A stretch of DNA of 64,000 bases from a bacterium (lineage in GTDB: Bacteria; Patescibacteriota; Minisyncoccia; Phycocordibacterales; CAIZLB01). The position numbers and the translations under genes are program-made. Shown here in pieces: positions 3,064-59,894 of the stretch. The stretch's first letter is position 1. Each line of letters opens with the position of its first letter. The stretch covers positions 142,943-206,942 of the forward strand of contig JBAXXP010000002.1 of NCBI GenBank assembly GCA_037127815.1. Reading direction: 5' to 3'. The notes under the pieces were generated by a model, which saw only the letters and a program-made list of their open reading frames with translations, made no database searches and was not told the origin of the DNA.

Positions 3064-4836
3064 ATGCAAAAAGAAATCAAAAATATACATAAAGAACCAT
3101 TTAAGATTAGGTTAAAGAATAAATATTTAAAATGGAAACAAATTGCTTTGACATACAAAAAGACAAGTATCGTCATTGCTATAGTTGTTATCGCATTAGT
3201 ATATTGGCTGATAAAATTAATTTTTCCTACACCAGTTATTACATCGTATGTTGTATCTGATGTTCAAAAAGGCTCAATTATCACGAACGTAACAGGTAGC
3301 GGACAAGTTTCTGCATCAAATCAAATTGACCTTAAGACCAAGGCTTCTGGCGATATATTAAAAGTAAACGTTACAACAGGACAAGAGGTTAAGGCTGCGC
3401 AAATTATTGCACAAATTGATAATCCAAGTGCATATCTTGATTATAGAGCTGCGCAAATTGCATATGAACAATTTGTTCAACCTGCAGATGCTTCAACAAG
3501 AATTCAAGCAGAAAATGATTTAAATAATACTAAGCAAAGTTACAATAAATCAGTAGACAATCTAAATAATGCATACGATACCGGATACAGTTCTGTTGCC
3601 TCAAGTTATCTAGACATGACAGAGGCCGTAACTGGAATGAACGATATACTCTATTCAGGTTCTGGATATTTGAATGATCAAAGTTTGGTAGCACTTTCGT
3701 CACAAACAAAGACTTTTAAAAATAATGCTGGTGTAAATTTTGATAAAGTAAAAAATGACTACAGGACAGCTCTTGAAACTTATAGAGCATCGTCAAGATC
3801 AAATTCAACAAGCTCTATTGAACAATTAATTAAGACAGCGTATGAGATAACAAAAGAAGTTTCAAGTACTCTTAAGGACCTAAAAAATACTGTTGACTAC
3901 ATTAAAAATCAAGATCCAAACAGCACAAACGCATCAAGCAACAGTACAGCAGCCGTAAACGCATCAAACAATCTAATTAATTGGATAGGTAAAATTAACT
4001 CTGATCTATCTAATCTATCAAGCTCAGTTAATAATATTAATGATTTAAAAGATACTATTCAAAATGGTCCACAAACGATTGCACAAAAGCAAGCAAACTT
4101 GGATAAGGTTGTAAATGGTGCAGACAATCTTGATATTGAAGCCCAAAGAATCAATCTTCAACAAAAGCAATTAACCTATCAAAATCTTTTTGTCACAGCC
4201 CCCTTTGATGGAGTTATAGCAAAAATAAGTATTAAGCCATCTGATGCAGTTTCCTCAGGAGCATCTGTTGGAACAATTATCACAAAGAACAAAGTAGCCG
4301 ATATTACTGTAAACGAAGTTGATGCAGCCAAGATTCTTGCTGGACAAAAAGCAACACTTACTTTTGACGCTATTGACGCCTTAAGTATTTCTGGAGTTGT
4401 TCAATCAATTGATTTAGTTGGAACTGTCACACAAGGTGTTGTTAATTACAATGTCAAAATTACTTTTGATGTTCAGGATGACAGAGTCAAATCTGGAATG
4501 AGCGTCAGCGCTTCTATAATTACAAACAATAAACAAGATGTAATTGTCATTCCAAATAGTGCTGTAAAAAGTAAGGGAGGAATAAAATATGTAGAGTTGT
4601 TTAGTTCAAAAGTTGCAACATCAACAACAGCACAAACTGCAAATGAGGTTCCTATACAACAAGCTGTGGAAGTTGGATTATCAAATGATACTCAAACAGA
4701 AATTTTATCAGGTCTAATTGTTGGAGACAGAATTGTTACAAAAACAACAACATCCAGTGCAACTGCCGCTAAGACAACATCAACACCTAGCTTGTTTGGA
4801 GGAGGCGGAGGAACAAGAGCTGCGACAGGACGATAA
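3064..4836 (+). CDS. Efflux periplasmic adaptor, HlyD/MacA membrane-fusion family
   Basis: N-terminal transmembrane helix, a lipoyl-like segment (GQVSASNQIDLKTKASGDILKVNV), a long coiled coil, a beta-barrel motif (VTAPFDGVIAKISIKPSDAV), and a C-terminal Ser/Thr/Gly tail. It is followed by the ABC ATPase and the FtsX-type permease. Confidence 0.8.
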   Translation: MQKEIKNIHKEPFKIRLKNKYLKWKQIALTYKKTSIVIAIVVIALVYWLIKLIFPTPVITSYVVSDVQKGSIITNVTGSGQVSASNQIDLKTKASGDILKVNVTTGQEVKAAQIIAQIDNPSAYLDYRAAQIAYEQFVQPADASTRIQAENDLNNTKQSYNKSVDNLNNAYDTGYSSVASSYLDMTEAVTGMNDILYSGSGYLNDQSLVALSSQTKTFKNNAGVNFDKVKNDYRTALETYRASSRSNSTSSIEQLIKTAYEITKEVSSTLKDLKNTVDYIKNQDPNSTNASSNSTAAVNASNNLINWIGKINSDLSNLSSSVNNINDLKDTIQNGPQTIAQKQANLDKVVNGADNLDIEAQRINLQQKQLTYQNLFVTAPFDGVIAKISIKPSDAVSSGASVGTIITKNKVADITVNEVDAAKILAGQKATLTFDAIDALSISGVVQSIDLVGTVTQGVVNYNVKITFDVQDDRVKSGMSVSASIITNNKQDVIVIPNSAVKSKGGIKYVELFSSKVATSTTAQTANEVPIQQAVEVGLSNDTQTEILSGLIVGDRIVTKTTTSSATAAKTTSTPSLFGGGGGTRAATGR

Positions 4837-4848: not shown

Positions 4849-5583
4849 ATGATTGAAGTAAAAAACATCACAAAAATATATGACCCTGACGCAAATGCAT
4901 TTCTTGCGCTTGATGGAGTAAGTTTTACCATTGAGGATGGCGAGTTTGTTGCAATCATGGGACCATCAGGATCTGGAAAATCGACATTAATGCATATACT
5001 TGGAGCGCTGGACACTCCAACAACAGGAACGTACTTTTTAGATGGAAAAGATGTGTCTGTTCTATCCGATGATGAACTTGCAGACATTAGACGAGAAAAA
5101 ATTGGATTCGTTTTTCAATCCTTTAATCTTCTACCAAGAAGCACTGTTCTTAGGAATGTAATGCTCCCCTTAATTTATGCTGGAGTTGGTGAAGAAGAAA
5201 GAGAACAGAGAGCTCGCGCAGCACTTCATGCATCTGGATTAGATGAATCGCACTTCACTCACCTTTCCAATCAATTATCTGGTGGACAGATTCAGCGCGT
5301 CGCTATATCTCGCGCCCTTGTAAATAATCCAAGTTTAATTTTGGCCGATGAACCTACTGGAAACCTAGATAGTAAAACTGGGGAAATTGTTCTTGGTACA
5401 TTTCAAAAATTAAATGAAGAGCTTGGAAGGACAATCGTTCTAATTACCCATGAGCCAGATGTTGCTGAGCATGCAGATAGGATTATTGTGATTCGAGATG
5501 GAAAAATCACAGAAGACAGAAAGAATCATAAGAAACAAAATGCGATAGCTTTGCTTAAAAAAATGAACGACGATAAAAAATAA
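4849..5583 (+). CDS. ABC transporter ATP-binding protein, MacB/LolD family
   Basis: Walker A GPSGSGKST, signature LSGGQIQRVAISRAL, Walker B ILADEPTGNLD. Confidence 0.9.
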   Translation: MIEVKNITKIYDPDANAFLALDGVSFTIEDGEFVAIMGPSGSGKSTLMHILGALDTPTTGTYFLDGKDVSVLSDDELADIRREKIGFVFQSFNLLPRSTVLRNVMLPLIYAGVGEEEREQRARAALHASGLDESHFTHLSNQLSGGQIQRVAISRALVNNPSLILADEPTGNLDSKTGEIVLGTFQKLNEELGRTIVLITHEPDVAEHADRIIVIRDGKITEDRKNHKKQNAIALLKKMNDDKK

Positions 5584-5587
5584 TTAT

Positions 5588-5619
5588 TTGGGGTCAGGCA
5601 CCATGGTGCCTGACCCCAA
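5588..5619. repeat. Copy 2 of the 32-bp palindromic element (perfect), inside the ABC operon
   Basis: A perfect TTGGGGTCAGGCACCATGGTGCCTGACCCCAA. It sits between the ATPase stop (5583) and the permease ATG (5628). Confidence 0.9.
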
Positions 5620-5627
5620 CCAAAAAA

Positions 5628-6848
5628 ATGACAATATTAGACATATTACACGAAACATATTCTGCGATTTTTTCCAACAAGGTTCGTTCTGGACTGACAA
5701 TGCTTGGAATCGTTATTGGAATTAGCTCCGTTATTGCAATGCTCGCAATTGGACAGGGCGCACAAAATTCCATTCAATCGAGCATTCAATCAATTGGGTC
5801 AAACCTAATTCTTATAACACCAGGTGCACAACGTGGCCCAGGTGTGCAAGTAAGTGCCGGGCGTGGAAGTGCAAAAACATTAACACTCGCTGATGTTGAT
5901 GCAATCAAACTTCAGGTCACAAATATTAAAGCTGTAGCTCCCGAAGTCACAGGAAGATATCAAGTTACTGCGGCTGGCCAAAATACAAATACAACTGTAA
6001 CAGGCGCCACACCTGATTATCAAAGTGTAAGAAATGTTTCCATTGCTGAGGGTACATTTATAACAGATCAAAATTTACAATCTGGAAGTAAGGTTGCGGT
6101 AATTGGTCCCAATGTCAGAGATGACTTATACGGAACCGGTGCTGATGTGATTGGGAAAAAAATAAGAATTAACAAAGTTGATTTTACAGTTATCGGATTA
6201 ACGGTTGCAAAAGGAGGAACTGGTTTTGGTAGTCAGGACGATCTTATTTGGGTACCACTTACAACAGCTCAAAGAATGCTTTCTGGCGATGAATATGTAA
6301 CAACAATAAGTGTTCAAGCTCCTGACTCAAATTCTAGCGCTGACATTCAAGCTCAGATTACTTCCCTTCTACTTGAAAAACATAATCTAAAAAATGGCGT
6401 CGCTGATTTCAGTGTTCTTAATCAAGCAGACATTGCAGCAACAGCATCGAGCATCACTCAAATATTCACCATTCTTCTTGGTTCAGTTGCAGGGATATCA
6501 CTAGTTGTTGGTGGAATTGGAATTATGAACATGATGCTTACAACGGTAACTGAAAGAACTCGGGAAATTGGATTAAGAAAAGCAATTGGTGCAAAAAATA
6601 AAGATATTAGTTTACAATTCTTAATTGAAGCTTTAATGATTACTTTTATCGGGGGGTTCATTGGAATACTCCTCGGATGGCTCATATCCTTCGGAATAAA
6701 TTATTCGGGATTGATTGCAACTCAAGTTTCAATATCTTCTGTAGTTCTATCCTTCACGGTCTCAGCTGTAATTGGGGTTGTCTTTGGATACTATCCAGCG
6801 CGGCGGGCTGCGGGATTGAATCCGATAGATGCGCTGAAGTATGAGTAA
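5628..6848 (+). CDS. ABC transporter permease, MacB/FtsX family
   Basis: N-terminal transmembrane helix, a large periplasmic domain and a C-terminal FtsX-type bundle of three transmembrane helices (GIGIMNMMLTTVTERTREIGLRKAIGA), the MacB permease hallmark. Confidence 0.85.
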   Translation: MTILDILHETYSAIFSNKVRSGLTMLGIVIGISSVIAMLAIGQGAQNSIQSSIQSIGSNLILITPGAQRGPGVQVSAGRGSAKTLTLADVDAIKLQVTNIKAVAPEVTGRYQVTAAGQNTNTTVTGATPDYQSVRNVSIAEGTFITDQNLQSGSKVAVIGPNVRDDLYGTGADVIGKKIRINKVDFTVIGLTVAKGGTGFGSQDDLIWVPLTTAQRMLSGDEYVTTISVQAPDSNSSADIQAQITSLLLEKHNLKNGVADFSVLNQADIAATASSITQIFTILLGSVAGISLVVGGIGIMNMMLTTVTERTREIGLRKAIGAKNKDISLQFLIEALMITFIGGFIGILLGWLISFGINYSGLIATQVSISSVVLSFTVSAVIGVVFGYYPARRAAGLNPIDALKYE

Positions 6849-6910: not shown

Positions 6911-7017
6911 ATTGACGAAGTGAAGAACAGATAAAGGTAAAAATTAAAAAATAATAAAACACATTAATCATAGTCGCGCCCAAAGGACATCGGCGCGACA
7001 TGATTTCGCAAAATCAT

Positions 7018-7494
7018 ATGAAAAAAAATCAAATAATAATAGCAGTAATAGTTTTAGTATTAGTTGCTGGAATATCATTCTATGCAGGTACAAAAGTTAA
7101 TAGTAACCCTTCTTCATCAAGACAAATGGGACAATTTGGACAAGATGCAAATGGCATAGGAGGCCCTGGAAATAATATTAGAACAAACAGAGGCGGTATG
7201 ATGGGTGGAGCTGTTTCTGGAGAGGTACTAAGTAAAGATGCAACAAGTATCACAGTAAAGCTAAGAGATGGAGGATCAAAGATAATCTTTATTACATCAG
7301 GAACTGCTGTTCAAAAAACATCAGCCGGAACAATTGAAGATGTAGTAGTCGGTAGTCAAATTTCAGCTACAGGCCAAGCTAATGCTGATGGAAGTATCAA
7401 CGCAACATCAATCAATCAAAGACCTAATGTACCTGTACAAAGCGCTGGAGCGGGTGCAGGAGCCCCACAAGGAGGTGCTCAACAAGCAAGATAA
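7018..7494 (+). CDS. Secreted Gly-rich hypothetical protein
   Basis: Signal-peptide-like MKKNQIIIAVIVLVLVAG and Gly-rich segments. The start is taken at the second Met (7018) rather than the caller's 7000. A GC hairpin GTCGCGCC...GGCGCGAC (6973..6999) lies just upstream. Confidence 0.5.
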   Translation: MKKNQIIIAVIVLVLVAGISFYAGTKVNSNPSSSRQMGQFGQDANGIGGPGNNIRTNRGGMMGGAVSGEVLSKDATSITVKLRDGGSKIIFITSGTAVQKTSAGTIEDVVVGSQISATGQANADGSINATSINQRPNVPVQSAGAGAGAPQGGAQQAR

Positions 7495-7556
7495 AGATTA
7501 GATAGTAGTACAATAAACCGTATACATCGCTCATAAAAAAATACAAATACAGAAAA

Positions 7557-7585
7557 GCCCCCGCGTAGCGGGGGCTTTGTTTTGA
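7557..7585. terminator. Bidirectional rho-independent terminator
   Basis: GCCCCCGC-GTAG-CGGGGGC stem flanked by an A-run and a T-run. It lies between the convergent genes ending at 7494 (+) and 7616 (-). Confidence 0.8.
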
Positions 7586-8754: not shown

Positions 8755-9183
8755 TCATATTTTAGATTTGTACAAGTTCAAAAAATTTGGAAGTTGAGAA
8801 TGAAGTGGTTCAGGAAAGGCGTCTAAAGAAAACCATTCTACAGCATCAAATTTATGAGGCTCCCCGTTACCTGTTTTCAATGGATCAATCTTAACCTTAA
8901 AATCTAGAGCTACCCAATGAGTATTTTTTCCTTGGTGCTCTCTATGAACATCTCGGTACCCTAAAAATTCAAAATTTAATATATCTGTGCGATATTCTTC
9001 AGCAATCTCTTTTCTTAGAGTGTTTTCTACAGTGTCATTAAATTCAAGACCTCCTCCACCACAGTCCCAGGTTCCATGCTCATCCCTGCAACTATTACTT
9101 CTTTTTGAAAGCAAATATTTACCATTTCCATCGTGACATAGATATACAATTGTAACACCTGTATAATCTTCTCCTTTTTTCAT
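8755..9183 (-). CDS. NUDIX hydrolase
   Basis: Nudix box GGGGLEFNDTVENTLRKEIAEEYRTD, matching the Gx5Ex7REUxEExGU pattern. Confidence 0.8.
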   Translation of the reverse strand: MKKGEDYTGVTIVYLCHDGNGKYLLSKRSNSCRDEHGTWDCGGGGLEFNDTVENTLRKEIAEEYRTDILNFEFLGYRDVHREHQGKNTHWVALDFKVKIDPLKTGNGEPHKFDAVEWFSLDAFPEPLHSQLPNFLNLYKSKI

Positions 9184-20545: not shown

Positions 20546-22126
20546 ATGGAAATTCAAACATCAGACTCTAGACCGCCGGTAGTTGTCGTAATGGGCCACA
20601 TTGACCACGGTAAATCAACACTTCTTGACTACATCAGAAAAACTAATGTGGTTGATAAAGAGGTGGGAGGAATTACACAAAGAATGTCAGCTTATGAAGT
20701 TGACCATACTGCCGTTGATGCTAATGGTAAGGAACAAAAAAAGACAATAGTATTTATTGATACTCCAGGTCATGAATCATTTAGCGCGATCAGAGCGCGT
20801 GGTGCAACAGCAGCAGACATTGCAATTCTTGTTGTATCAGCTGAAGACGGAGTTAAACCTCAAACACTAGATGCTCTTAAAGCAATCAAAGATGCAGGAC
20901 TTCCTTTCATTGTTGGAATCAGTAAAATCGATAAGCCAAACGCTGACATTGATAGAGTTAAGCTTTCCCTGGCAGAGAATGAAATCTATGTTGAAGGTTA
21001 TGGAGGCAGTATTCCATGGATAGCATTCTCTGGTAAGACAGGAGCTGGTGTTGATGAACTATTAGATTTAATTTTACTAACTGCAGAAGTTGATGAGATT
21101 AATGGAGATCCATTTGCTGAAGCAGAGTGTGTTGTTATTGAAGCAAATAGAGATAAAGTTAGAGGAGTTTCTGCAACACTAATTGTTAAGAATGGAACAC
21201 TTTACACTGGATCATTTATTGTTTCAGGAACAGCATTGTCTCCTGTTAGAATTATGGAAAACTTTCTAGGAAAGCCATTAAAAGAAGCTGGACCTTCTAC
21301 TCCAGTTAGAGTTGTTGGTTGGACAGCAGAGCCTGAGGTTGGTGGAGTATGCTTTACATTTGGAAGCAAAAAAACAGCTGAGGCTTATGTTGCAGAAGAA
21401 TTAATAAAAGCAAGAGAAAGATCTGAAGCTATTCAAAAGGTTCGTGTTATAGACAGAATTACAGCTACAAACAAAGCTAATGCTCTTGCTCATGAAAATG
21501 GTGAAGAGATTATTGATACAGTTGTTCTTCCTGTAATTATCAAAGCAGACACTTCAGGATCTGCGGAGGCTGTGAAGTATGAAATCGAAAATAAAATTAA
21601 AGTTCCTAATGTAGAAATTAGAATTATTGCGATGAGTATTGGAGATATTCTAGAAAAAGACGTCAAACTAGCTTCAGGAAAAGCTGGAACAGTTATTCTT
21701 GGATTCAACACAAAGATTGATAGTGGATCAAAGTCCATGGCGGACAAAAATGGAATTCATATAATGACATTCAATATCATTTACAAGATGACAGAATGGT
21801 TACAAGAATTTGCAGAAGAACATAGACCAAGAACTCAAATTGAAGAAACTAAAGGAATGATTAAGGTTCTTAAAATATTTAGCGCAAGCAAGGACAAACA
21901 AGTTCTTGGAGGAAGAGTTGAAACTGGAATGATTTCATTTAACGATGAAGTTAAAATTCTTAGACGCGATATTGAAATTGGTAGAGGTCGTGTTCGTGAA
22001 CTTCAACACCTTAAGGCTAAAATTGGTTCAGTTGAAGAAGGAAAAGAATTTGGAGCTATGGTTGAGTCAAAGGTTGAAATAACAGCTGGAGATAAATTGG
22101 AAACATTCCACAAAATCATAAAGTAA
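20546..22126 (+). CDS. infB: Translation initiation factor IF-2, short form lacking the N-terminal domains
   Basis: G domain GHIDHGKSTLLD, DTPGHESF, and SKIDK (compare NKID), followed by the beta-barrel and C-terminal domains. rbfA lies downstream. Confidence 0.9.
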   Translation: MEIQTSDSRPPVVVVMGHIDHGKSTLLDYIRKTNVVDKEVGGITQRMSAYEVDHTAVDANGKEQKKTIVFIDTPGHESFSAIRARGATAADIAILVVSAEDGVKPQTLDALKAIKDAGLPFIVGISKIDKPNADIDRVKLSLAENEIYVEGYGGSIPWIAFSGKTGAGVDELLDLILLTAEVDEINGDPFAEAECVVIEANRDKVRGVSATLIVKNGTLYTGSFIVSGTALSPVRIMENFLGKPLKEAGPSTPVRVVGWTAEPEVGGVCFTFGSKKTAEAYVAEELIKARERSEAIQKVRVIDRITATNKANALAHENGEEIIDTVVLPVIIKADTSGSAEAVKYEIENKIKVPNVEIRIIAMSIGDILEKDVKLASGKAGTVILGFNTKIDSGSKSMADKNGIHIMTFNIIYKMTEWLQEFAEEHRPRTQIEETKGMIKVLKIFSASKDKQVLGGRVETGMISFNDEVKILRRDIEIGRGRVRELQHLKAKIGSVEEGKEFGAMVESKVEITAGDKLETFHKIIK

Positions 22127-22130: not shown

Positions 22131-22162
22131 TTGGGGTCAGGCACCATGGTGCCTGACCCCAA
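22131..22162. repeat. Copy 3 of the 32-bp palindromic element (perfect)
   Basis: Lies between the infB stop (22126) and the rbfA ATG (22172). Confidence 0.9.
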
Positions 22163-22171: not shown

Positions 22172-22510
22172 ATGAAATCTAAAGCAATAATAAAACCACA
22201 TAGAGACGAAAGGGCTATTCATATCATTAAAGAATTGGCTATGGAGTTTATGTCACGTGAAGCAAACAGAACATCTCTTGTTACTGTTACTAATGTCATT
22301 CTTGGCGATAGAGCTAAGAAAGCAACAATCCTTCTTAGTGTTTTACCAGAAGATAAAGGCCCAGTTGTTGAAGAATTTGCTAATAGAAAATGTAAGGAGT
22401 TCAGAAGTTATGTAAAAGCTAAGTCAAAGCTAGGTATTATACCCTTCTTTGATTTCAAAATAGACTTTGGTGAATTGAATAGACAGAATATTGACAGGAT
22501 GCTAAAATAG
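22172..22510 (+). CDS. rbfA: Ribosome-binding factor A
   Basis: Conserved infB-rbfA synteny. TSLVTVTNVILGDRAKKATILLSVLP and LGIIPFFDFKID match the RbfA KH-like fold motifs. Confidence 0.7.
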   Translation: MKSKAIIKPHRDERAIHIIKELAMEFMSREANRTSLVTVTNVILGDRAKKATILLSVLPEDKGPVVEEFANRKCKEFRSYVKAKSKLGIIPFFDFKIDFGELNRQNIDRMLK

Positions 22511-24084: not shown

Positions 24085-24100
24085 GATTGTAACCCCTGAT

Positions 24101-24138
24101 GGGGCTTGCGGCATCTGCCGCAAGCCCCATCTTTTTTT
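24101..24138 (+). terminator. Rho-independent terminator
   Basis: GGGGCTTGCGGCATCTGCCGCAAGCCCC hairpin followed by a T7 run. Confidence 0.8.
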
Positions 24139-27982: not shown

Positions 27983-28037
27983 GGGGTCAGGTAGCACTAG
28001 TATTTGTATTGTCATAAGTCACTACCGTGCCTAACCT
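27983..28037. repeat. Degenerate, disrupted copy of the palindromic element
   Basis: GGGGTCAGGTAGCAC ... about 25 nt ... TACCGTGCCTAACC. The arms resemble GGGGTCAGGCACCA / TGGTGCCTGACCCC with several substitutions and an internal insertion. Confidence 0.3.
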
Positions 28038-28085
28038 AAAAAAAAGGCCGCATGCGAGTAAACTCGCATGCGGCCCCATATCAAA
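28038..28085 (-). terminator. Strong rho-independent terminator for the minus-strand flavoprotein gene
   Basis: GGCCGCATGCGAG-TAAA-CTCGCATGCGGCC hairpin followed on the minus strand by a T8 run. Confidence 0.8.
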
Positions 28086-33002: not shown

Positions 33003-34496
33003 TTATTCCACCATCACTTTTACGTTTACTCTTTCATTCTTGATTTTTATAAATAATGAAGTAAATGCTCCAACAAAAACTATCGCAGCTGCAATTAGGA
33101 ACACATAATTATAAGCGTTTATCTGGGCCTTCAAAACAACAAGTGACATATACTGTTGAATGGTAGTTGGATTAGTACTATTCAATATACTCATTTGATT
33201 TATAGATAGGATGTTTGTACTGATCCTATTGCTCAAAATCGTACCAAATAACGCGATACCAACAGCTCCAGAAATATTTCTAACAAGTGCGAGTATTGAT
33301 GACGCAATGCCAATTTCATTAAGGTCGACAACTGATGCGACGATATTCGTACGTTGAGCCATACCAAAGCCAAGACCAAAGGCCATCACAGATAATGGAA
33401 CCATTATATCCATCGCTGTTGATTTTGCATCAAGAAAAGAAAGCATAAAAATTCCAATTGACGCTACAATCGTACTCGCGAAAATAATATATCTTGGCTG
33501 TACCTTACCAGTTAATGAACCCCCAAGAGGTGAAGCAATCATCATCGCTGCAGCAAGGGGCATAAATAAATATCCAGATTGACTTGCTGTGTATCCCAAA
33601 AATGTTTGTGCAAATACCGGTATTAAAAATAATCCTCCCATCATACCCATAAACACAACAAAGTTGTTAATAAGTGCATAAACAAAGGCGGGTATCTTAA
33701 AGAATTTCAAATCAACAATAGGCTCTTTTGTTTTCTGTTCGATTTTTATAAATAATCCAAAAAGTGTGACTATTATAAAATATGAAATCATACTTCCTGA
33801 TGAAAGCCATCCCCAATCGTTCCCCTTCTCCAGCACCAAAACCAGAGATGAAAGCATACCCCCAAGAGTCAGTGCTCCCCACCAATCGAAATGTTTTGAT
33901 TTAACTGGAGCAACAGACTCGTTAATAAAATGAAAAGCCATCCAGATTCCTATAATTCCAATCGGTAGGTTAATAAGAAACACGGAACGCCATCCAAAAT
34001 TATCAATAAGTGGACCACCAATAAGCGGGCCAAAAACTGTAGCGGCAGCAAAAGATGATGACCATATACCAAGCGCTTGTGCTCTTTGCTTTCCTTCCTT
34101 GAAGGTTATAGCAATAATAGCCATAGCTGTTGGATAATCAGCGGACCCTGCAATTGCTTGAATGATTCTAAAAACAATCATCGATTGAAGATTCCAAGCA
34201 AGACCAGCCAGTACTGATCCAACAATAAAAATCGAAAATCCTAATATATATATTTTCTTCCTTCCAAGTGAGTCACCAAGCTTTCCCCAGATTGGAACAA
34301 ACACTGCATTTGCAATAATATAAGCTGTGGCAATCCAACCTGCAGACGAGATGGTAAGCCCAAAATCATTAATGATTTTAGGCAAAGCCAAGTTAACAAT
34401 TGTCTGATCAAGACGCCCCAAAAAAGTACCCACTATAACAGTAAGAAGAATCCACCACTGAAGTTTTGTTCTACCTTCCTCCTTATTATTTTGCAT
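33003..34496 (-). CDS. MFS transporter, DHA2 (EmrB/QacA, 14-TMS) family
   Basis: Motif A GKLGDSLGRKK, 14 predicted transmembrane helices, and a multidrug-type operon context. Confidence 0.9.
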   Translation of the reverse strand: MQNNKEEGRTKLQWWILLTVIVGTFLGRLDQTIVNLALPKIINDFGLTISSAGWIATAYIIANAVFVPIWGKLGDSLGRKKIYILGFSIFIVGSVLAGLAWNLQSMIVFRIIQAIAGSADYPTAMAIIAITFKEGKQRAQALGIWSSSFAAATVFGPLIGGPLIDNFGWRSVFLINLPIGIIGIWMAFHFINESVAPVKSKHFDWWGALTLGGMLSSLVLVLEKGNDWGWLSSGSMISYFIIVTLFGLFIKIEQKTKEPIVDLKFFKIPAFVYALINNFVVFMGMMGGLFLIPVFAQTFLGYTASQSGYLFMPLAAAMMIASPLGGSLTGKVQPRYIIFASTIVASIGIFMLSFLDAKSTAMDIMVPLSVMAFGLGFGMAQRTNIVASVVDLNEIGIASSILALVRNISGAVGIALFGTILSNRISTNILSINQMSILNSTNPTTIQQYMSLVVLKAQINAYNYVFLIAAAIVFVGAFTSLFIKIKNERVNVKVMVE

Positions 34497-35127
34497 AAAC
34501 CCTTAATTTTACAGACATACCATTCCTGAATTCTGGATGAAGTAAAATATCATATCTAACTTTTATATTAAATTGTTTTATTTCACGTTTATCAGAAATA
34601 CTAAATAGAGAACCTGATTGATTTGATGTTGGGCTAACCTCATCAACAATACCCATAAATTGTGTACTACCATATGCATCAACGGTAAACACAGCAGTAT
34701 CGCCAACTTTAATTCTAGATAGACCTTTATCTTCATCAATTTTCCCAACCACTCTCAATTGATTAGGATCAATCATTGATACAACTGTAGCTCCTGCCAT
34801 AAACACTTGCCCTGGAGTATTTTGCACATTAATAATTACACCTGCAGTTTTTGCAGAGAGTACTTCTGAACCAACTCGTGCTAATGATTGATTAACAGTA
34901 ACCCTGTCACCCGCCTTAACATAAACCTCTGAAAGAATACCCTCAGCTTCTGGTCCAACATTTATAACTGGAGCAGAAATTTGAGACATATCAATAGAAA
35001 CATAAGCTGAGGTTGATTTCAAATAAAGAAGACCTCCGAGTATACCAAATATTACTATTATACCAGTCACACTTTGAACCAACGGCCTTTTAAAGAAACT
35101 CTTTTTTGTATTGTTAGGATTTTCCAT
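34486..35127 (-). CDS. Short HlyD/EmrA-like membrane-fusion protein
   Basis: Transmembrane helix, a lipoyl-like VYVKAGDRVTVNQSLARVGSEV, and a beta-barrel segment. The start is taken at MENPNN (35127), because the caller's upstream extension simply translates the palindrome (MGSGTMVPDPK). Confidence 0.7.
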   Translation of the reverse strand: MENPNNTKKSFFKRPLVQSVTGIIVIFGILGGLLYLKSTSAYVSIDMSQISAPVINVGPEAEGILSEVYVKAGDRVTVNQSLARVGSEVLSAKTAGVIINVQNTPGQVFMAGATVVSMIDPNQLRVVGKIDEDKGLSRIKVGDTAVFTVDAYGSTQFMGIVDEVSPTSNQSGSLFSISDKREIKQFNIKVRYDILLHPEFRNGMSVKLRVYAK

Positions 35128-35143
35128 ATTTTGTATTTTGATT

Positions 35144-35175
35144 TTGGGGTCAGGCACCATGGTGCCTGACCCCAA
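35144..35175. repeat. Copy 4 of the 32-bp palindromic element (perfect)
   Basis: Lies between two co-directional HlyD-family genes, 16 nt upstream of the 35127 start. Confidence 0.9.
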
Positions 35176-35179
35176 ATGA

Positions 35180-36220
35180 TTATTGTTTTACGATTGTTAG
35201 AAGTGTCTTATTTACAATAGCTGATTCACCAATTTTTAAATGTGAATCAACAAATGATACAACCCCGTCCATTGGAGCGACAATTGTATAATTCTTATAC
35301 GCAGCCAAAGCAATTTCATATGACCCCTGCACAGAATTTATTGTAGCTTGTGCAATATTGGCCTCTGAAGATCCATTCTTACCAAGATTTGCTTCTAGCT
35401 GACTTAATACTTGATTACGAGTTGTTACAGCTAGATCATATGCGTTTCTATTTGCAACGTAGCTAACAGAACGTTTGTTTGGAATGCTTATTACCCACTT
35501 AGTTGAAGCAGAATAATATCCTGATGGAAATTGAATAAATAAACCACATGAACCAAGAGGCTGTGGAGCAAAATATGTTACACTTCCATTACCATCTTCA
35601 AGCCCTGTTACATTAAATGAATAGCCTGATACAACACCCGATGAATAAGGTGCTACAACATATTCACCTTCCTTTTCACAGGTGTACGTCCCACTTATCT
35701 GTGGAATTAAACTATTATCTACTGTTGCATTTTCATTATAATTATCTTTACCTACTGCAATAAGATTACTAGATAACATTGTTCTATAAGCATTTGCAAC
35801 CAGCACATCTTGTTGTTTTTTTGCACTAGCATATTGAACATTCAGTGATGCATACTGTGCTTTCGCAAGCTCAAGTGACCCCCTTGCTTGATTCACCGCA
35901 CCTTTTGCATCATCTGCCTCAAGAGTTGCCAGTACGTCACCTGCTTTTACAATATCTCCAGAACGAACAGTAACTGTAGCGACACGCCCTGCTTTAACAA
36001 AAGCAAGGTTCACTGAGTTACTAGATGTTCCTTCAACTGATATAGCAAGATTTTGATCTAAAGGAAGTACGACGGAAGGAGCATTACCAACATAATTATA
36101 AAGTGACGCTCCGATAATTATTGCAACAACCATTGATGCTGAAATTACAATTTTAGGTTTCTGAAATATGCTGATTATTTTATTTTTCATTTTTTTTGAG
36201 AACTCATGTCGCGTCTCCAT
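35180..36220 (-). CDS. HlyD/EmrA-family membrane-fusion protein
   Basis: Transmembrane helix, a lipoyl half-motif VRSGDIVKAGDVLATLE, a coiled coil, and a C-terminal beta-barrel IVAPMDGVVSFV. Confidence 0.8.
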   Translation of the reverse strand: METRHEFSKKMKNKIISIFQKPKIVISASMVVAIIIGASLYNYVGNAPSVVLPLDQNLAISVEGTSSNSVNLAFVKAGRVATVTVRSGDIVKAGDVLATLEADDAKGAVNQARGSLELAKAQYASLNVQYASAKKQQDVLVANAYRTMLSSNLIAVGKDNYNENATVDNSLIPQISGTYTCEKEGEYVVAPYSSGVVSGYSFNVTGLEDGNGSVTYFAPQPLGSCGLFIQFPSGYYSASTKWVISIPNKRSVSYVANRNAYDLAVTTRNQVLSQLEANLGKNGSSEANIAQATINSVQGSYEIALAAYKNYTIVAPMDGVVSFVDSHLKIGESAIVNKTLLTIVKQ

Positions 36221-38734: not shown

Positions 38735-38814
38735 AATTATTATTATACACCAGCACTATCACACCACCTATACTATTAGTACGATAGTTATTAGAAAAAC
38801 TTTCACTATAACAT

Positions 38815-38846
38815 TTGGGGTCAGGCACCATGGTGCCTGACCCCAA
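38815..38846. repeat. Copy 5 of the 32-bp palindromic element (perfect)
   Basis: Lies 10 nt after the metK stop and 81 nt upstream of the DoxX start. Confidence 0.9.
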
Positions 38847-38856
38847 ATTACAAACT

Positions 38857-39822
38857 CTATCTGTCCCACTCAAAACCTCTCCCAAAATGTCCCCAGGTAC
38901 ATGTATCCTTAAATTTTACGTCCTTGAAATTTAGATGATTATTTATTCCAGCTGGAGTTAAATCATAATCTGTAATCTCAACCTCTTTTCCATCAATAAC
39001 AGCAATAGCCATAACCGGCTCATTTTTCCCAATGGCATATGCAAGCTTCGTAAAAACCTCATTTGCATTATGTTTCTTAAGCAAATCAATTGCAATTTTA
39101 CGTGCCATGTAAGCGCCTGATCTATCAACTTTTGTATAGTCTTTTCCAGAGAATGAGCCACCACCAATTGTTATTTCTGGTCCATAATTATCAACAATCA
39201 ATTTCCTACCAGACAGTCCCGTATCTGCATCAAACCCACCTTGATCCCATTCTCCTGCTGGATTAATTAAATATTCGTCAGCTTGGATAATATCTTTTAC
39301 GATTTTCAGAAGCTCATCATTTTTTGAGTTTTGAAAACTTACGACAACTGTAGTGACTTTACCATCCTCAATTGTAACTTGAGTCTTTCCATCGTAAGGA
39401 TAAACTTCAAAAACTTTCTTACACAAATTTCTAGCCAACTCATATTCTAAAGGTAATAATGATACGGTCTCATTTGTTGCATATCCCTTCATAATCCCCT
39501 GATCTCCAGCTCCTCCAGTATCAACACCTTGTGCAATTTGAGGACTTTGTAAAACTAAATTTGATATTATTTTATATGAATCACCTACGATACCCTTTAC
39601 AATCAACTCAATATCAGGATTTGCTTTTGATGTAACTTCTCCATTTATTGTAATCAAACCATGACCACCCATCACCTCTACTGCAACTCTACTTTTTATA
39701 TCTTCTTGCATATATGCATCTAGAATACTATCTGCGATAAAATCGCAAATCTTATCTGGATGCTTTGGACTAACAAATTCTGCTGTTCTTTTCATATTTG
39801 TACGAATCGCCACAACACCCAT
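38857..39822 (-). CDS. metK: S-adenosylmethionine synthetase, short form
   Basis: FVSPKHPDKICDFIADSILDAY, RVAVEVMGGHGLITINGEVTS, GGGSFSGKDYTKVDRSGAYMARKIA (the GGGAFSGKD P-loop-like motif). Confidence 0.85.
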   Translation of the reverse strand: MGVVAIRTNMKRTAEFVSPKHPDKICDFIADSILDAYMQEDIKSRVAVEVMGGHGLITINGEVTSKANPDIELIVKGIVGDSYKIISNLVLQSPQIAQGVDTGGAGDQGIMKGYATNETVSLLPLEYELARNLCKKVFEVYPYDGKTQVTIEDGKVTTVVVSFQNSKNDELLKIVKDIIQADEYLINPAGEWDQGGFDADTGLSGRKLIVDNYGPEITIGGGSFSGKDYTKVDRSGAYMARKIAIDLLKKHNANEVFTKLAYAIGKNEPVMAIAVIDGKEVEITDYDLTPAGINNHLNFKDVKFKDTCTWGHFGRGFEWDR

Positions 39823-44208: not shown

Positions 44209-44328
44209 ATGGTTATTCTATCACACGCAACTAAAATATGTCTTAAGAAAAACAATATCAGATGGACTTTTGGATACATTATGGAATAATTAAGTAGTAA
44301 TTTAGTTATGATTTTCCAATGAAATAAT

Positions 44329-44637
44329 ATGAAAAAACACCCATCTATAAGACAAGTCAAATATGCCTACGGATTAATGAATGAAAATAAAACCAAACAG
44401 CAAATAGCCCTTGATTCTGGTTTCTCGCCAAGTACTGCCCGAGTTCCCAACTCAATCGAAAATAAGATAGGTTTTAAGCTTGCTATCGCTCAGATAGCTG
44501 GAGAGATGGAGAACGTCGCTATGAAGCTCATGTACGAGCTTGAGGTGCGTGATATGAGTAAGATGGACAACAAGACCTTACTTTACTCTCTTGATGTAAT
44601 TTCAAAGACTCACGAGCGTTTTATGGCCAAAATCTAA
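44329..44637 (+). CDS. Small HTH protein, possibly terminase-small-subunit-like or a recombination directionality factor
   Basis: The N-terminal KQQIALDSGFSPSTARVPNSIENKIGFKLAIAQ resembles the HTH of phage small-terminase / regulatory proteins. It is on the same strand as the recombinase. Confidence 0.35.
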   Translation: MKKHPSIRQVKYAYGLMNENKTKQQIALDSGFSPSTARVPNSIENKIGFKLAIAQIAGEMENVAMKLMYELEVRDMSKMDNKTLLYSLDVISKTHERFMAKI

Positions 44638-44777
44638 TAAACATAAGGAATTTCCATACTTCAACATTCAAACTCCACTTCCCTTTATATTTATTTAAAA
44701 TGTGGTAGTATTTTAGTACAACTTAATAAAAGAAGTAGCCTAAACCTATGTTGAAATATATAGGCATGGTGAAAAAA

Positions 44778-44882
44778 GTCCTGACAGACATAAAAAACCC
44801 ATCATATGGGGTGTCTGTCAGGCCGTACTGGGAAACTGGTATTGGAGAGCGCAAGCTCTCCACTCATGTGGTGGGCTTTTTG
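44778..44882 (+). ncRNA. Candidate structured small RNA or cis-regulatory leader
   Basis: An 11-bp stem CCTGACAGACA...TGTCTGTCAGG encloses a small hairpin. It is followed by GGAGAGC-GCAA-GCTCTCC (GNRA tetraloop), then CCAC-TCAT-GTGG, then GGGCTTTTTTG. The whole lies 35 nt upstream of the 44917 ATG. Confidence 0.3.
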
Positions 44883-44916
44883 CGTTCTTGATTATATTTA
44901 TTTTAAATAAAAATAC

Positions 44917-45813
44917 ATGAAAAAATATCTTTCAATTATAGTCCTACTTATAATAATAACTCCTTCGATTGCCCTAGCCTCGTGGTGGAATCCCTTCACT
45001 TGGGCATGGCTTGGTAAAACTATAAATACTCAAACTATACAGGAATTGTCAACTACAACATCATCGGTTGCAACATCAACTTATAAGAATATTCATGCAA
45101 CTACTTCAATAAATTTAATAGGTGATAAAGCTAAAAAGTCTTCAAAAACAGAAGTTCATATTCAAAAACAATCAAATGTTGAACCTTATATATCATCAGT
45201 TCAAGATCTGCCACAAAAAACTAACGAGGTAGAAAAAAGTTCCTTATTAAAACAAGATGAATCTATTAAACCATATATAGATATTAAGGTTAATGGGCAA
45301 GATGGTCCAATTACCGTAAATTTGAACTCTTACGTTACTGTTTCTTGGACATCAAAAGGTGTTCTGTCTTGTGTTTCAAATAAGAACAACAAGTCACTTT
45401 CTGGTAGTGAAATTATAAATATTAATGCACAAACAACAAACCCTTTCGTAATTAAATGTGTTTCTACCGATGGAGATAATGTGTCTGACTCAGTGTCACT
45501 AAATATCAACGGTTCAAATATTGAAAATATAGATCCTTATGGTGTAGTACCCTTGAAATCAGGCGATGTTTATACTCCAGATCAACTAAACTTAATTGAC
45601 TGTACATATCATGGAACTAACTGTAAACCAATGACCACCATTTACCAAGATGTTCAACCTGCTTCTGTTCAAAAACAAGTCTTTGATTGTTGGTCATATC
45701 AAGTAGAACAGAAAAAACTCGATGAGAGTTATGCCCAAAATGGAACCCTCTTTTCTGGTGCCAGAGCAAATGCAGATAGCGCCCTAAAAGCAAAATATGC
45801 GAGTTGTTTTTAA
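44917..45813 (+). CDS. Secreted hypothetical protein (element cargo)
   Basis: Signal peptide MKKYLSIIVLLIIITPSIALA, a Ser/Thr-rich linker, and a Cys-containing C-terminal domain. Confidence 0.5.
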   Translation: MKKYLSIIVLLIIITPSIALASWWNPFTWAWLGKTINTQTIQELSTTTSSVATSTYKNIHATTSINLIGDKAKKSSKTEVHIQKQSNVEPYISSVQDLPQKTNEVEKSSLLKQDESIKPYIDIKVNGQDGPITVNLNSYVTVSWTSKGVLSCVSNKNNKSLSGSEIININAQTTNPFVIKCVSTDGDNVSDSVSLNINGSNIENIDPYGVVPLKSGDVYTPDQLNLIDCTYHGTNCKPMTTIYQDVQPASVQKQVFDCWSYQVEQKKLDESYAQNGTLFSGARANADSALKAKYASCF

Positions 45814-45822
45814 TTCAAGTAT

Positions 45823-46533
45823 ATGAAAAAAATAATAACACCATTTATAATAGCAATTATTTTTATAACTACTGCTTACCAGTGGAATCCAGAAAATTTA
45901 AATAACCCTATTGATAAAAAGACCACAAATCAATCTGAGCAAAAACCTGTATCCGAGGCGCCTATTTCTACTACCACAAAAAATGTTCATGAGGAACCAA
46001 AAAAGATAGTCACTGAAAATACCGAAACTACGTCTATTTCAAAAACCAACACAATACCAACAAAAAATACAAAATCGAATATTGCAACTAGTACAACCGA
46101 TCCCTATGGTATTTTATCAACATCAGGTATTGCATACACCCCAGCAGAATTAAAAGCCATTGAAAGTGCTTATGCTGGAGTTTATGACCCTGCGATCAAT
46201 ACAGCCTTAAGCAAAGTTGATACTATGCAAAGAGAACGATCTGCAATTGCTGAGGCATCATTAGAATCATCATCAGGAAGAAATGTTGGTACAGTGGTTC
46301 TCTCTGAATCTGGATGTGATTATTATTTAGTTGAAACAAGTTTAGGCTATTCACTACTCGAATGGTATGGAGGTTTTGTCCAAGTAGAAGGGGGTATTAT
46401 ATATGGGAACCTAAACAGTTATGGGATGAAAGATGTCACAAACAGGAGCGGACGAAGCGGTAGAGCTTGGGTGGAGGACTACATGCTTTCAAAATCAAGA
46501 GCGATGGAAAAATATTACGATAAGTGTAATTAG
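45823..46533 (+). CDS. Secreted hypothetical protein (element cargo)
   Basis: Signal/TM segment MKKIITPFIIAIIFITTAY and a Thr/Ser/Asn-rich linker. Confidence 0.5.
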   Translation: MKKIITPFIIAIIFITTAYQWNPENLNNPIDKKTTNQSEQKPVSEAPISTTTKNVHEEPKKIVTENTETTSISKTNTIPTKNTKSNIATSTTDPYGILSTSGIAYTPAELKAIESAYAGVYDPAINTALSKVDTMQRERSAIAEASLESSSGRNVGTVVLSESGCDYYLVETSLGYSLLEWYGGFVQVEGGIIYGNLNSYGMKDVTNRSGRSGRAWVEDYMLSKSRAMEKYYDKCN

Positions 46534-46814
46534 CAAAACTTGTATTAGACAAGACTAAAATTTGACTTTTACAAATAACTTGCTAGGCTTATATAGAAGC
46601 TCTTTGCATCGTAGTAAATTTTCTGGAGAATTGATTTGTTGTATGGGACAGTTATGATCAGTCAAATTCAAAGGGAATGTTCAGAACAATATATTTAAAA
46701 TAGATAACTCCCGCCTTATGGTAAGTTATCAAGGGTAAATGTGTGAAGCTGACAATCTAATAGGTTTTTCCTATTAAGTTGTCAATTTTACATATTAACA
46801 ATCATGTAGAAAAG

Positions 46815-46841
46815 ACAACCCCCAAAGGGTTGTTTTTTGTT
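46815..46841 (+). terminator. Rho-independent terminator
   Basis: ACAACCC-CCAAA-GGGTTGT followed by a T6 run. Confidence 0.6.
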
Positions 46842-46901
46842 TAGATAGAAGCAACAAACCTATTTATTCAAAACTCCAACACTTACTTATTAATATTAAT
46901 C

Positions 46902-49415
46902 TTGTTTTGTGTGATAGCTCTAAGTGAAGAATCTAATCAGTTACCACTTAGGGTTATCACACGGCATGTAACTGATTATATGAACAATATAAACATCCTC
47001 GCCAAAACTTTTGGCGAACAAAAACGTTGGGTAAATTACAAATTAATTGAAAAAGACGGTAAATTAATAAAGCCTCCATTCAAAACAGACGGGAGTCTCG
47101 CATCATCGACCGACAGCGGTACATGGTCTAACTACGAAGATGCTATAAAATCATCTCCTAATGTTGGCATAATCTTTACTCCAGATAAATTACTTCTTGG
47201 TATTGATATTGATCACTGTCTTGAAGACGGGGTGATTTCTCACGTAGAAAAAGAAAAGATTGAGAAACTAGTCATCAAGGCAAATACTTATACAGAAATA
47301 TCCCCCTCCAATACAGGACTGCATTTATTTCTTTCTTTGACTGAACCTCTAGAAATTCTAAAAAATAAAAGTGCCCCTTTTGAAGTTTATATATCTGGGC
47401 GTTATTTTACTGTAACAAACAACCCATACATAGAAGCTCGTCCTGTTCGTACAGTAACACCAGATGAAGCTTTTAAACTACTATCAATTATTGGTTATCC
47501 TTGGAATAAAAAAGAAGACTTTCAACAAAATATTGTAACGCTTAATACTTTATCACTCAGTGATGAAGAGATTATAACTAAAATATTCTCTTCAAAAAAT
47601 GGAGCCAAAATTAAATCACTTTACAATGGCGACATATCAACATACGGTGACGATGATTCTTCAGCAGACCTAGCATTATGTTCTTACCTAGCTTTTTGGA
47701 CACAAAAAGATCACAGTCAGATTGAACGTGTATGGCTCAATTCCCCTCTTGGTAAAAGAGAAAAAACTCAATCTCGTAAAGACTATAGAGATAGAACTAT
47801 CGAGACTGCGATAAATGGTTGTTCAGAAGTATATTCAAAATCAAGACAACAGAAAGAAGATAAGTCTGACGTTAACAATATTCAGACGGAAGTAGCAAAA
47901 GATAACACATTACTTAATGAGATTTGTAACCGAAGTGATGTAACACTATTTTGTGATGAGCAAAAAGATACTTATATTGCCTTAGACATTTTGGGGCATC
48001 AAGAGATTTGGCCTTGTGATGGTAGTTCAATAAAAAATTTACTAGCTTATATGTCTTGGAATAAAAACAAAAAACCTCTAGGTTCAGAGAGTACTAAAAG
48101 CATAATAGCCGTAATGGAAGGTAAGGCACGTTTTGAAGGAAAAGAGATTAAATTACACAATCGTGTAGCTTGGCACGATGGCAGTCTTTGGTATGATCTT
48201 ACAAATAAACAGTGGCAGGCAATAAAAATATGTGAAAGCGGTTGGGAAATTATAGGCAAACCACCAATCATCTTTAATCGATACAGCCACCAGCAGTCTC
48301 AAATTACTCCGAATCAAAACGGAAATATAGACTTATTTTTAAGGTATATAAACATAACTAATCCAGAACACCGTTTGTTATTCTTAGTTTTTTTAGTTAG
48401 TTGTTTTATCCCAGATTTTCCTCATGTAATGCTCGTGATATTTGGAGCCCAAGGATCGTCTAAATCAACTTTTTCAAAATTGACGAGAATGACAATAGAC
48501 CCATCAATGATTGATGTTGTTGCGTTACCAGAAAAATAAAATGAACTTGTACAGATACTTGCGCATCATCACGCCGTATTTTTTGACAATGTATCTCACG
48601 TCAGTGAAGATACATCAGATACAATTTGTCGAGCAATTACTGGTAGTGGTTTTTCAAAAAGAAAGCTCTACAAAAATGATGAGGATATCATATACAAATT
48701 TAACAGATGTTTAGGAATTAACGGAATAAACCTTGTTACTATTCGACCAGATTTACTTGAAAGAAGCCTACTAATAGAATTGGAAAGAATTGACCCGACA
48801 AAGAGAAAGCATGAAAAAGAACTCTACGAGAATTTTGCACAAGATTTACCATCTATTTTGGGAGGAATATTCGATATATTAGTAAGAACTTTAGAAATCA
48901 AGTCTACAATCAAAATTAACTCTCTACCTCGTATGGCAGACTGGACTATTTGGGGATGTGCAATTTCAGAAGCATTAGGATATACAAAAGAAGATTTTTT
49001 GAAGGCGTATGAAAATAATATCAACAGGCAGGCTGAAATGCTGTTAAATGAAAATATCATAGCTACTACGTTATTTTCATTCATGGAAGATAAATCAAAT
49101 TGGAGAGGAACTGCTAGCGAACTTCTGGATAGTCTATATTCAAAGACTCCTACGGATTATTTCGCTAAGTATGAGAAGTTTTGGCCAAAAAGTGCTGGCT
49201 CTTTATCTCGTAAATTAAATGAACTAAGCACGTATCTAAAGCAAATGGGAATAGTTGTAAACATTAGTACTACTGGCAAGGAAAGGTACATTGATATAAA
49301 AAATATTTCTAAAGCTAAGGAATCTATAGAGAAAAATAAGCAGATTCCTATTGGCGTTAGAGATGACGATACTTACGATATTTTATCAATACCAAAAAGA
49401 GACATTTTTGCTTAG
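46902..49415 (+). pseudogene. Prim-pol (bifunctional primase/polymerase N-terminal domain) fused to a D5/P4-type primase-helicase NTPase, interrupted by a single in-frame TAA at 48537..48539
   Basis: The N-terminal KRWVNYKLIEKDGKLIKPPF matches the prim-pol motif. Walker A GAQGSSKST lies before the stop. Reading on in the same frame (frame 0) gives NELVQILAHHHAVFFDNVSHVSED... (Walker B hhhhD) and joins the ORF 48780..49415 without a frameshift. Confidence 0.65.
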
Positions 49416-49431
49416 ACCCTTAACACCAACC

Positions 49432-49593
49432 AAGATGTTAAGCAAAGAAATTATTAGTGAGTTTCAGGAGGTTCTAAAAGAAGAGTACGGCAGGAACGTA
49501 ACCTTTCAAGAAGCATCCTCAATACTTTGTGGTTTGGTGGCCTATTTTGACACGCTTGCAAAAATAAACCATCTTATGCAACAAGACCCCTGA
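49432..49593 (+). CDS. Small hypothetical protein immediately upstream of the recombinase
   Basis: MLSKEIISEFQEVLKEEYGRNVTFQEASSILCGLVAYFDTLAKINHLMQQDP. Its position suggests a possible accessory or directionality factor, but it is unverified. Confidence 0.3.
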   Translation, partial: KMLSKEIISEFQEVLKEEYGRNVTFQEASSILCGLVAYFDTLAKINHLMQQDP

Positions 49594-49635
49594 GTGATAT
49601 ACTGGGTAAAATACTTATAAATTAATCTAACAACC

Positions 49636-51189: not shown

Positions 51190-51249
51190 GATTCGAACCT
51201 ACGACCAATTCGTTAACAGCGAACTGCTCTACCACTGAGCTACCGCGGA
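51178..51249 (-). tRNA. tRNA-Asn (anticodon GTT)
   Basis: Reverse complement TCCGCGGTAGCTCAGTGGTAGAGCAGTTCGCTGTTAACGAATTGGTCGTAGGTTCGAATCCTACCCGCGGAG. Anticodon loop CTGTTAA. Confidence 0.85.
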
Positions 51250-59887: not shown

Positions 59888-59894
59888 ATAAAAG

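Follow-up and report, generated by a model that had tools for sequence, protein, structure and literature searches.

A lineage-specific palindromic repeat of likely REP/MITE-like nature at gene junctions of a Patescibacteria species

Within the 64-kb window analyzed here (the whole stretch of contig JBAXXP010000002.1 that was examined), a palindrome occupies positions 5588-5619, in the gap between the genes for an ABC transporter ATPase and a MacB-type permease. Comparison with further copies and with related contigs makes it likely that this palindrome belongs to a lineage-specific, recently amplified repeat, which resembles repetitive extragenic palindromic (REP) sequences or miniature inverted-repeat transposable elements (MITEs) and was inserted at gene junctions in one Patescibacteria (Parcubacteria-like) species. 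The element would thus add a member to a known class, that of short interspersed palindromic repeats, from a phylum for which we found no description of them; the literature searched likewise held nothing on the sequence itself. A first-pass annotation of this DNA had located and described the palindrome and its 44-nt gap correctly, and had proposed that the stem sets the ATPase:permease stoichiometry. This function we do not retain, since at least 15 near-identical copies lie at unrelated junctions and the stem is missing in five relatives.

The palindrome is perfect over 32 nt (TTGGGGTCAGGCACCATGGTGCCTGACCCCAA) and consists of two fully complementary arms of 16 nt that abut without a spacer (TTGGGGTCAGGCACCA and TGGTGCCTGACCCCAA). 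The gap (5584-5627, 44 nt) starts after the TAA stop codon that ends at 5583 and reads TTAT, TTGGGGTCAGGCACCA, TGGTGCCTGACCCCAA and CCAAAAAA, followed by the ATG at 5628; 4 nt separate the stop codon from the palindrome and 8 nt separate the palindrome from the ATG. Upstream lies the ATPase gene (4849-5583, plus strand, 244 aa; PF00005, E 5.8e-34) and downstream the permease gene (5628-6848, plus strand, 406 aa; PF12704 MacB_PCD and PF02687 FtsX). A HlyD-family (MacA-like) adaptor gene (3064-4836, plus strand) comes earlier in the same co-directional cluster, and the adaptor-ATPase junction in the window is 12 nt long and carries no element. As RNA, this copy (copy 2 of the family) folds into a 14-bp stem of nine G-C and five A-U pairs, with the central 4 nt as loop. 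At -28.3 kcal/mol (z = -6.6), this fold is more stable than that of any of 200 shuffled sequences. The earlier description as a 16-bp GC stem thus needs correction. Upstream of the permease we found neither a Shine-Dalgarno (SD) sequence nor space for a promoter in the 8-10 nt before the ATG. With no room for a permease promoter, the palindrome should therefore be transcribed within the operon mRNA. Since the window DNA recurs in several independent assemblies (JGI, ENA, Logan; metagenome-assembled genome (MAG) GCA_964417855.1), the palindrome is not an assembly artifact.

A 28-nt core (GGGGTCAGGCACCATGGTGCCTGACCCC) is present six times in the window, against 0.00 copies expected from 100 shuffles, with core starts at 2440 (one C>T change), 5590, 22133, 35146, 38817 and 59858. 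A metagenome scan queried with the palindrome arms added at least nine distinct copies, which lie on other low-GC contigs of these lake samples (L128, L129 twice, L130, L131, L139 twice and L143 twice; L-numbers denote the other contigs or loci that were compared with the window). In all overlaps among these contigs or with the window, sequence identity is at least 99.9%. The resulting census of 15 copies, six in the window and at least nine on other contigs of the same species, is a lower bound. The core is identical in 14 of the 15 copies. To define the conserved unit, the 30 half-flanks of the 15 copies were pooled. Counted outward from the core, T occupies the first flanking position in 30 of 30 half-flanks, the second in 28 of 30 and the third in 26 of 30, and further out the composition is that of the background. 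Likewise, the two flanks are mirror-complementary at the first position in 15 of 15 copies, at the second in 15 of 15 and at the third in 13 of 15, with only chance levels (4-7 of 15) beyond. The unit therefore is TTT + GGGGTCAGGCACCATGGTGCCTGACCCC + AAA, 34 nt in total; in copy 2 (unit 5587-5620) its outermost pair is mismatched (T/C). Because complementarity ends after three flanking nucleotides, we rejected growth of a quasi-palindrome by flank extension as its origin. No solitary half-site was found in the window or at the other loci, and each 13-mer arm is part of a full palindrome.

Copy 1 (unit 2437-2470) is located between two co-directional genes of unknown function, with its core 5 nt past the stop codon and 10 nt before the ATG. 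The single C>T change of this copy is in the 3' arm and produces a G-U pair in the sense RNA, which folds at -26.6 kcal/mol. Copy 3 (22131-22162) lies between infB (20546-22126) and rbfA (22172-22510), where the core begins 6 nt past the infB stop and ends 11 nt before the rbfA ATG. Copy 4 (35143-35176) separates two minus-strand HlyD-family genes (35180-36220 and 34486-35127) of a MarR-HlyD-HlyD-MFS cluster, and its core is again 6 nt past the upstream stop. The first-pass annotation had pointed to the same arrangement at these latter two junctions, which we can confirm. The core of copy 5 (38814-38847) follows the metK stop (minus strand) after 12 nt and precedes a doxX-like gene, which has its own -10 box, by 82 nt. 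For copy 6 (59855-59888), the gene that stops 9 nt before the core encodes an ABC exporter (59895-61748, minus strand); on its other side, the copy closely precedes the extended -10 box (TGATACAAT) of a purF-like gene (58450-59835).

All 15 copies are intergenic and none is inside a coding region, with only about 10% of the window being intergenic. The core is 5-14 nt away from a stop codon in at least 12 of the 15, and in six copies a distance of 10-13 nt separates the core from the next ATG. Five of the six window copies occupy junctions of at most 25 nt (element excluded), a class that makes up about 3.5% of the intergenic bases. With respect to gene orientation, 11-12 copies are in co-directional junctions, two in convergent ones (L128, L130) and one in a divergent one (L143:1854), a split that is close to each class's share of intergenic length. 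Avoidance of divergent regions, a hallmark of REPs, was considered and dropped, as one copy in 15 does not differ significantly from the approximately 18% expected by length. The neighbors of the copies are housekeeping genes that are unrelated to each other and include infB/rbfA, metK/doxX, ABC exporter/purF, dUTPase, SHMT, RNase J/MFS, YceG and CDPS. Copies were found on at least five different contigs, at a density of about one per 10 kb and without clustering in one region.

As relatives we used contigs traced from permease homologs with 73-90% amino acid identity (about 70-77% nucleotide identity); relatives at about 75-77% nucleotide identity lack the short element. In five relatives, with a MacB that is 73-89% identical, the ATPase-permease junction is empty and measures 1 nt in L149/L150, 2 nt in L153, 4 nt in L147/L148 and 6 nt in L151/L152. 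In L146 it spans 47 nt of unrelated, weakly structured GC-rich sequence, and two further contigs have junctions of 40 and 44 nt, which are known by length alone. The junction of copy 1 is 10 nt long in L153 and 7 nt in L149, the infB-rbfA junction of L161/L162 has 18 nt and no hairpin, and the RNase J-MFS junction of L149 lacks the element. Altogether, four junctions are filled in the source species and empty in relatives. The empty ATPase-permease junctions in five relatives show that the stem is not a conserved part of the operon, and from this comparison it appears to have been gained in the lineage of the window.

A longer, related element was found in two sister species. In L146, a 91-nt hairpin (9041-9131; -60 kcal/mol) occupies the HlyD-ATPase junction, 3 nt past the stop and 15 nt before the ATG. 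It starts with GGGGTCAGGCCCCGTGCAG and ends with CTGCACGGGGCCTGACCCC, and its interior differs from that of the short palindrome. The 10-nt termini GGGGTCAGGC...GCCTGACCCC are common to the short palindrome and the 91-nt element (L146, L151). The orthologous copy in L151/L152 (L151:6326-6415) is decayed and folds at -30 kcal/mol. A second copy in L151 (8389-8435) has the left half only and lies 2 nt past the permease stop. Common ends around a differing interior, multiple copies and a decay that looks neutral are typical of non-autonomous mobile elements. An autonomous element with GGGGTCAGGC/GCCTGACCCC ends was not found in the sequence examined. A viral origin was also considered and rejected, as viral contigs contain neither of the two forms. 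In Rfam, the palindrome had no match at the gathering score, and the sub-threshold matches were to generic hairpin (miRNA) models only.

Several observations weigh against a mobile repeat. No transposase, REP-associated tyrosine transposase (RAYT) or other mobilizing gene is present in the window or beside the nine other copies, and the sole serine recombinase of the window (49636-51189) is part of a probable integrated element beside tRNA-Asn. Direct target-site duplications are absent; the TTT/AAA flanks are mirror-complementary at all 15 copies and at the long elements. Presence/absence polymorphism at the strain level was not seen, and the case for mobility comes from comparison between species, with relatives that are too distant (about 70-77% nucleotide identity) to align the empty junctions and the insertion point base by base. 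Furthermore, other GC-rich inserts or hairpins occupy the same junctions, namely the 47-nt ATPase-permease junction of L146 and the infB-rbfA junction of L160. In the latter, a different perfect hairpin (GGCCCCGCCCGC-GAAG-GCGGGCGGGGC; L160:2059-2085) is positioned 6 nt past the infB stop and 9 nt before the rbfA ATG, exactly where the window holds copy 3. The source species has a stem similar to that of L160 with a compensated arm difference (L129:7925-7951). The two share the pattern GGCCCCGC[C/A]CGC-loop-GCG[G/T]GCGGGGC without a U-tract and may represent a second hairpin family. In addition, two copies of the palindrome have mirrored complementary flank variants (TGT...ACA and ATT...AAT), the sole core variant (copy 1) retains pairing in the sense RNA through its G-U pair, and the enrichment of copies in the shortest junctions is extreme. 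The inserts at the same junctions, together with the compensatory flank variants, could mean that a hairpin is selected for at such places. Two explanations fit these data, either a preference for A/T-rich, stop-adjacent targets combined with purging elsewhere, or selection for the hairpin. We weight the first higher, because the copies are identical, five relatives are stemless and the orthologous long copy is decaying.

Selection for the hairpin is what the earlier proposal would require, according to which a dedicated intercistronic stem was selected to set the ATPase:permease, IF2:RbfA and HlyD:HlyD ratios via coupling, attenuation or processing. The location of the stem 4 nt past a stop and 8 nt before an ATG, its recurrence in three tight co-directional junctions and the strong enrichment of copies in very short junctions are in line with this idea, as are the retained G-U pair, the two mirrored flank variants and the inserts in L160 and L146. 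Nevertheless, we consider it unlikely. The same operon has a 1-6 nt junction and no stem in five relatives, and copies of the sequence also separate convergent genes (L128, L130), lie in the promoter region of a divergent gene pair (L143:1854) and precede genes with a -10 box of their own between element and ATG (copies 5 and 6, L129, L139). That 15 unrelated sites have an identical sequence speaks for copying rather than for independent selection, and the decay of the orthologous long element in L151 fits poorly with a selected function.

A broader functional explanation can also be put forward. Here, the palindromes and the other GC hairpins without a U-tract at the same junctions of related species would serve as domesticated intercistronic punctuation in an SD-less bacterium with mostly leaderless mRNAs or very short leaders. 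Cleavage at the hairpin or exonuclease arrest would divide polycistronic RNA into units whose 3' end is protected and whose AUG is about 10 nt away from the new 5' end, and the hairpins would be delivered to stop-adjacent sites of the type TTT/AAA (insertion between the two triplets) by an undescribed, duplication-free insertion process. To us this appears quite improbable. If it were true, it would reveal a route to punctuating polycistronic mRNAs in leaderless-translating bacteria.

For the repeat interpretation that we prefer, the following scenario can be drawn. The unit would insert into A/T-rich spacers next to gene ends without direct duplication of the target. Copy 2 would then be transcribed in the operon mRNA and fold at -28 kcal/mol. 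As the hairpin lacks a U-tract, RNA polymerase should read through it. In the transcript, the hairpin could form a barrier to 3'-to-5' exonucleases or a processing point, by which the upstream ATPase segment might be protected. REPs of E. coli stabilize upstream mRNA segments. The Correia elements of Neisseria, which RNase III cleaves or binds, are a partial parallel (PMC2649163). With the stem base 4 nt past the stop, a terminating ribosome would have to melt the lower part of the stem. Liang, Rudd and Deutscher (Mol Cell, 2015) reportedly observed a lower output of the upstream gene, via ribosome stalling and tmRNA, when a REP lies no more than about 15 nt from the stop codon. Once refolded, a stem 8 nt before the permease AUG would hinder independent loading of 30S subunits, and in this SD-less genome initiation at the permease probably relies on ribosomes that arrive from the ATPase cistron. 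Such RNA-level effects would be generic to all copies and thus by-products of a tolerated, at most mildly useful, insertion. Coupling, attenuation and processing had all been offered earlier as modes of action. An effect at the RNA level is indeed physically plausible, given that the hairpin is stable, transcribed and without a U-tract, but attenuation is unlikely on the sense strand.

The genome is almost devoid of SD sequences. An SD-like 4-mer precedes two of 51 starts, compared to 9% of random positions, and the permease start has none. The assumption of the first-pass annotation that the stem is immediately 5' of a ribosome-binding region consequently does not apply. A -10-like hexamer with its end 5-9 nt upstream of the ATG is present in 15 of the 51 genes, compared to 3% at random positions. 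From this spacing we infer that many genes are leaderless, while internal cistrons start after short A/C-rich spacers.

A DNA-level function, with the palindrome as duplex binding site for a dimeric protein (an operator, a parS-like or Noc-binding-site (NBS)-like site or a recombination site), is very unlikely in our view. The perfect, near-invariant dyad symmetry over 28-34 bp would suit such a site, and a ParB-family gene lies just left of the window. Most copies, however, are placed right after stops, in operons or between convergent genes, not at promoters, and they are spread over at least five contigs without clustering in one region. The palindrome presumably bears no resemblance to the 16-bp parS consensus. 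Moreover, the 91-nt sister element with the same termini and a different interior is better explained by an element with terminal repeats. A restriction-site role of the central CCATGG was rejected as well; the window has 10 such sites, four of them outside the palindromes, and shows no avoidance.

Equally improbable is that the palindrome acts as an intrinsic terminator or attenuator and thereby reduces transcription of the gene behind it. What recalls a terminator is the strong GC-rich stem-loop just past a stop codon, and a consensus scan indeed flagged copy 2 as terminator-like, albeit on the antisense strand only, where the stem is followed by the tail AUAAUUAUUU. This flag arises because the end of the ATPase gene is A-rich. 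On the sense strand no U-tract follows the stem of copy 2, the tail being AACCAAAAAA. Every copy has the order TTT-stem-AAA, the mirror image of the AAA-stem-TTT of a bidirectional terminator, and the unit itself thus provides a U-tract in neither reading direction. Genuine terminators in the window carry clear T-runs, for example those at 7554-7578, 24098-24131 and 28046-28075. Among the very stable hairpins of the window, only the palindromes lack a U-tract, and only they occupy tight co-directional junctions. Finally, the permease has no promoter of its own, and efficient termination would deprive the pump of an essential partner.

Paired DNA-uptake sequences (DUS) as in Neisseria or Haemophilus are scarcely credible here: inverted DUS pairs form hairpins at gene ends in Neisseria and Patescibacteria are thought to depend on DNA uptake, but solitary half-sites are missing from the window and the other loci, no copy lies in a coding region and about one copy per 10 kb is far below the density of DUS or uptake signal sequences (USS).

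The element shares features with several known systems. REPs and REPINs (REP doublets forming a hairpin) of Enterobacteria and Pseudomonas are mobilized by the RAYT transposase (PMC3116915, PMC3337134, PMC5581495). Like these, our element is a repeated short palindrome (REPs have about 20-40 nt) with an extragenic, gene-end-biased placement at 3' ends and in operons, is co-transcribed, can form a hairpin in single-stranded DNA or mRNA, and is free of target duplications. The 91-nt sister element, with two inverted arms and a long hairpin, resembles a REPIN. There are also clear differences. The palindrome is perfect and near-invariant whereas REPs are imperfect, and all 15 short copies are solitary, without doublets or clusters. 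A GTAG-like tetranucleotide is a defining feature of REP/RAYT systems, but the unit begins with TTTGGGGTCAGG... and has no GTAG-type 5' tetranucleotide. A RAYT gene is found neither among the window genes nor beside the nine other copies, and the host belongs to the Patescibacteria, with a genome of about 1 Mb, a group for which we found no literature on REPs.

The Correia elements (CREE/NEMIS) of Neisseria are MITEs whose co-transcribed hairpins alter expression of neighboring genes and can be cleaved or bound by RNase III (PMC2649163). They resemble our element in being non-coding, in their terminal inverted repeats, gene-adjacent insertion and co-transcribed hairpins, and in their lineage-specific presence or absence at orthologous sites. 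CREE, however, have 100-155 bp with an internal core, an integration host factor (IHF) site, promoter-forming ends and a TA duplication, while the unit described here has 34 nt, consists of arms only, lacks a direct duplication and forms a stem that is shorter than a classical RNase III substrate. Of the features of MITEs, presence/absence between species was seen and target duplication was not. The 10-nt termini recur in the 91-nt element, but no autonomous element with these ends was found. The arm of the 91-nt element (about 44 nt, GGGGTCAGGCCCCGTGCAGAGCGCGGAAAATGTGTYGTAATATT) has a GGGGTC start and CGGAAAAT, which presumably recall Tn3/Tn21 ends, a partial likeness that we take as a lead only. 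In contrast to Tn3-family elements and Tn3-derived inverted-repeat miniature elements (TIMEs), no copy has a 5-bp target duplication and no Tn3-type transposase was seen. Yeast mitochondrial GC clusters are GC-rich palindromic mini-elements in the intergenic space of a compact AT-rich genome. They belong to an unrelated host, differ in sequence and have characteristic flanking duplications, so that the comparison is an analogy only. Integron attC sites were rejected, because RYYYAAC...GTTRRRY core motifs are absent and the flanking genes (infB, rbfA, metK, purF) are housekeeping genes and not cassettes.

Similar arms were also encountered in other bacteria. Rubrivivax benzoatilyticus JA2 (e.g., L038, L053) harbors a dense, clustered REP family, GGGGTCAGG-TCTCNNGAGA-CCTGACCCC, in which the outer 9 nt of each arm are the same as in the palindrome studied here. 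In the high-GC metagenome contigs L132, L133, L137, L138 and L141, a longer inverted repeat (AAACCTGAC...GTCAGGTTT) encloses 13-nt arms identical to those of the palindrome, here with GC or AG as the loop. L132 and L133 look orthologous, with diverged flanks and an identical 28-nt core. In one Bacillota MAG, the 13-nt arm with another loop is part of an ordinary terminator. The occurrences in high-GC contigs are probably a mix of chance matches among abundant GC hairpins and one unrelated REP-like family. In the window itself, an imperfect hairpin at 27983-28037 with the termini GGGGTCAGG...CCTAACC is located beside the canonical terminator at 28046-28075. This hairpin could be a member of the palindrome family in decay, although its fold is not significant (z about -1.7).

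Patescibacteria genomes are very small and gene-dense, and repeats would be expected to be purged from them. A recent amplification would show that such genomes still host active miniature elements. The element furthermore offers a natural experiment on how stable hairpins are tolerated within tightly coupled, SD-less operons. It can also mislead regulatory inference, as it did in the first-pass annotation, and gene annotation, because the ATG in its center may be taken as a gene start. At copy 4, one gene call indeed places the start of the second HlyD gene at this central ATG (224 aa), which is probably an annotation artifact. Of the two HlyD-family products at this locus, the first (346 aa) combines a transmembrane segment with a lipoyl motif and a coiled coil and lacks a beta-barrel. 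The barrel is found in the second (213 aa), together with a transmembrane segment of its own and a short lipoyl motif. With these features in the downstream piece, and since the two open reading frames are not simply one broken frame, we rejected the view that copy 4 splits one HlyD gene and regard them as two genes.

Further features of the window were noted in passing. Upstream of metK (38857-39822, minus strand), next to copy 5, lies an S-adenosylmethionine (SAM) riboswitch (RF00162; 39891-40008, minus strand). The region 44300-51250 is a probable integrated mobile element. Its gene for a large serine recombinase (49636-51189) abuts tRNA-Asn (51177-51249, minus strand), and it also contains a prim-pol-like gene (46902-48539), several open reading frames without a family match and a LOOT RNA (RF03000, 80 bits) at 44737-44860. 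Shortly behind the permease gene, a GC hairpin at 6980-7002 (GTCGCGCC-N11-GGCGCGAC) ends at the ATG of the gene at 7000-7494, such that the start codon abuts the stem.

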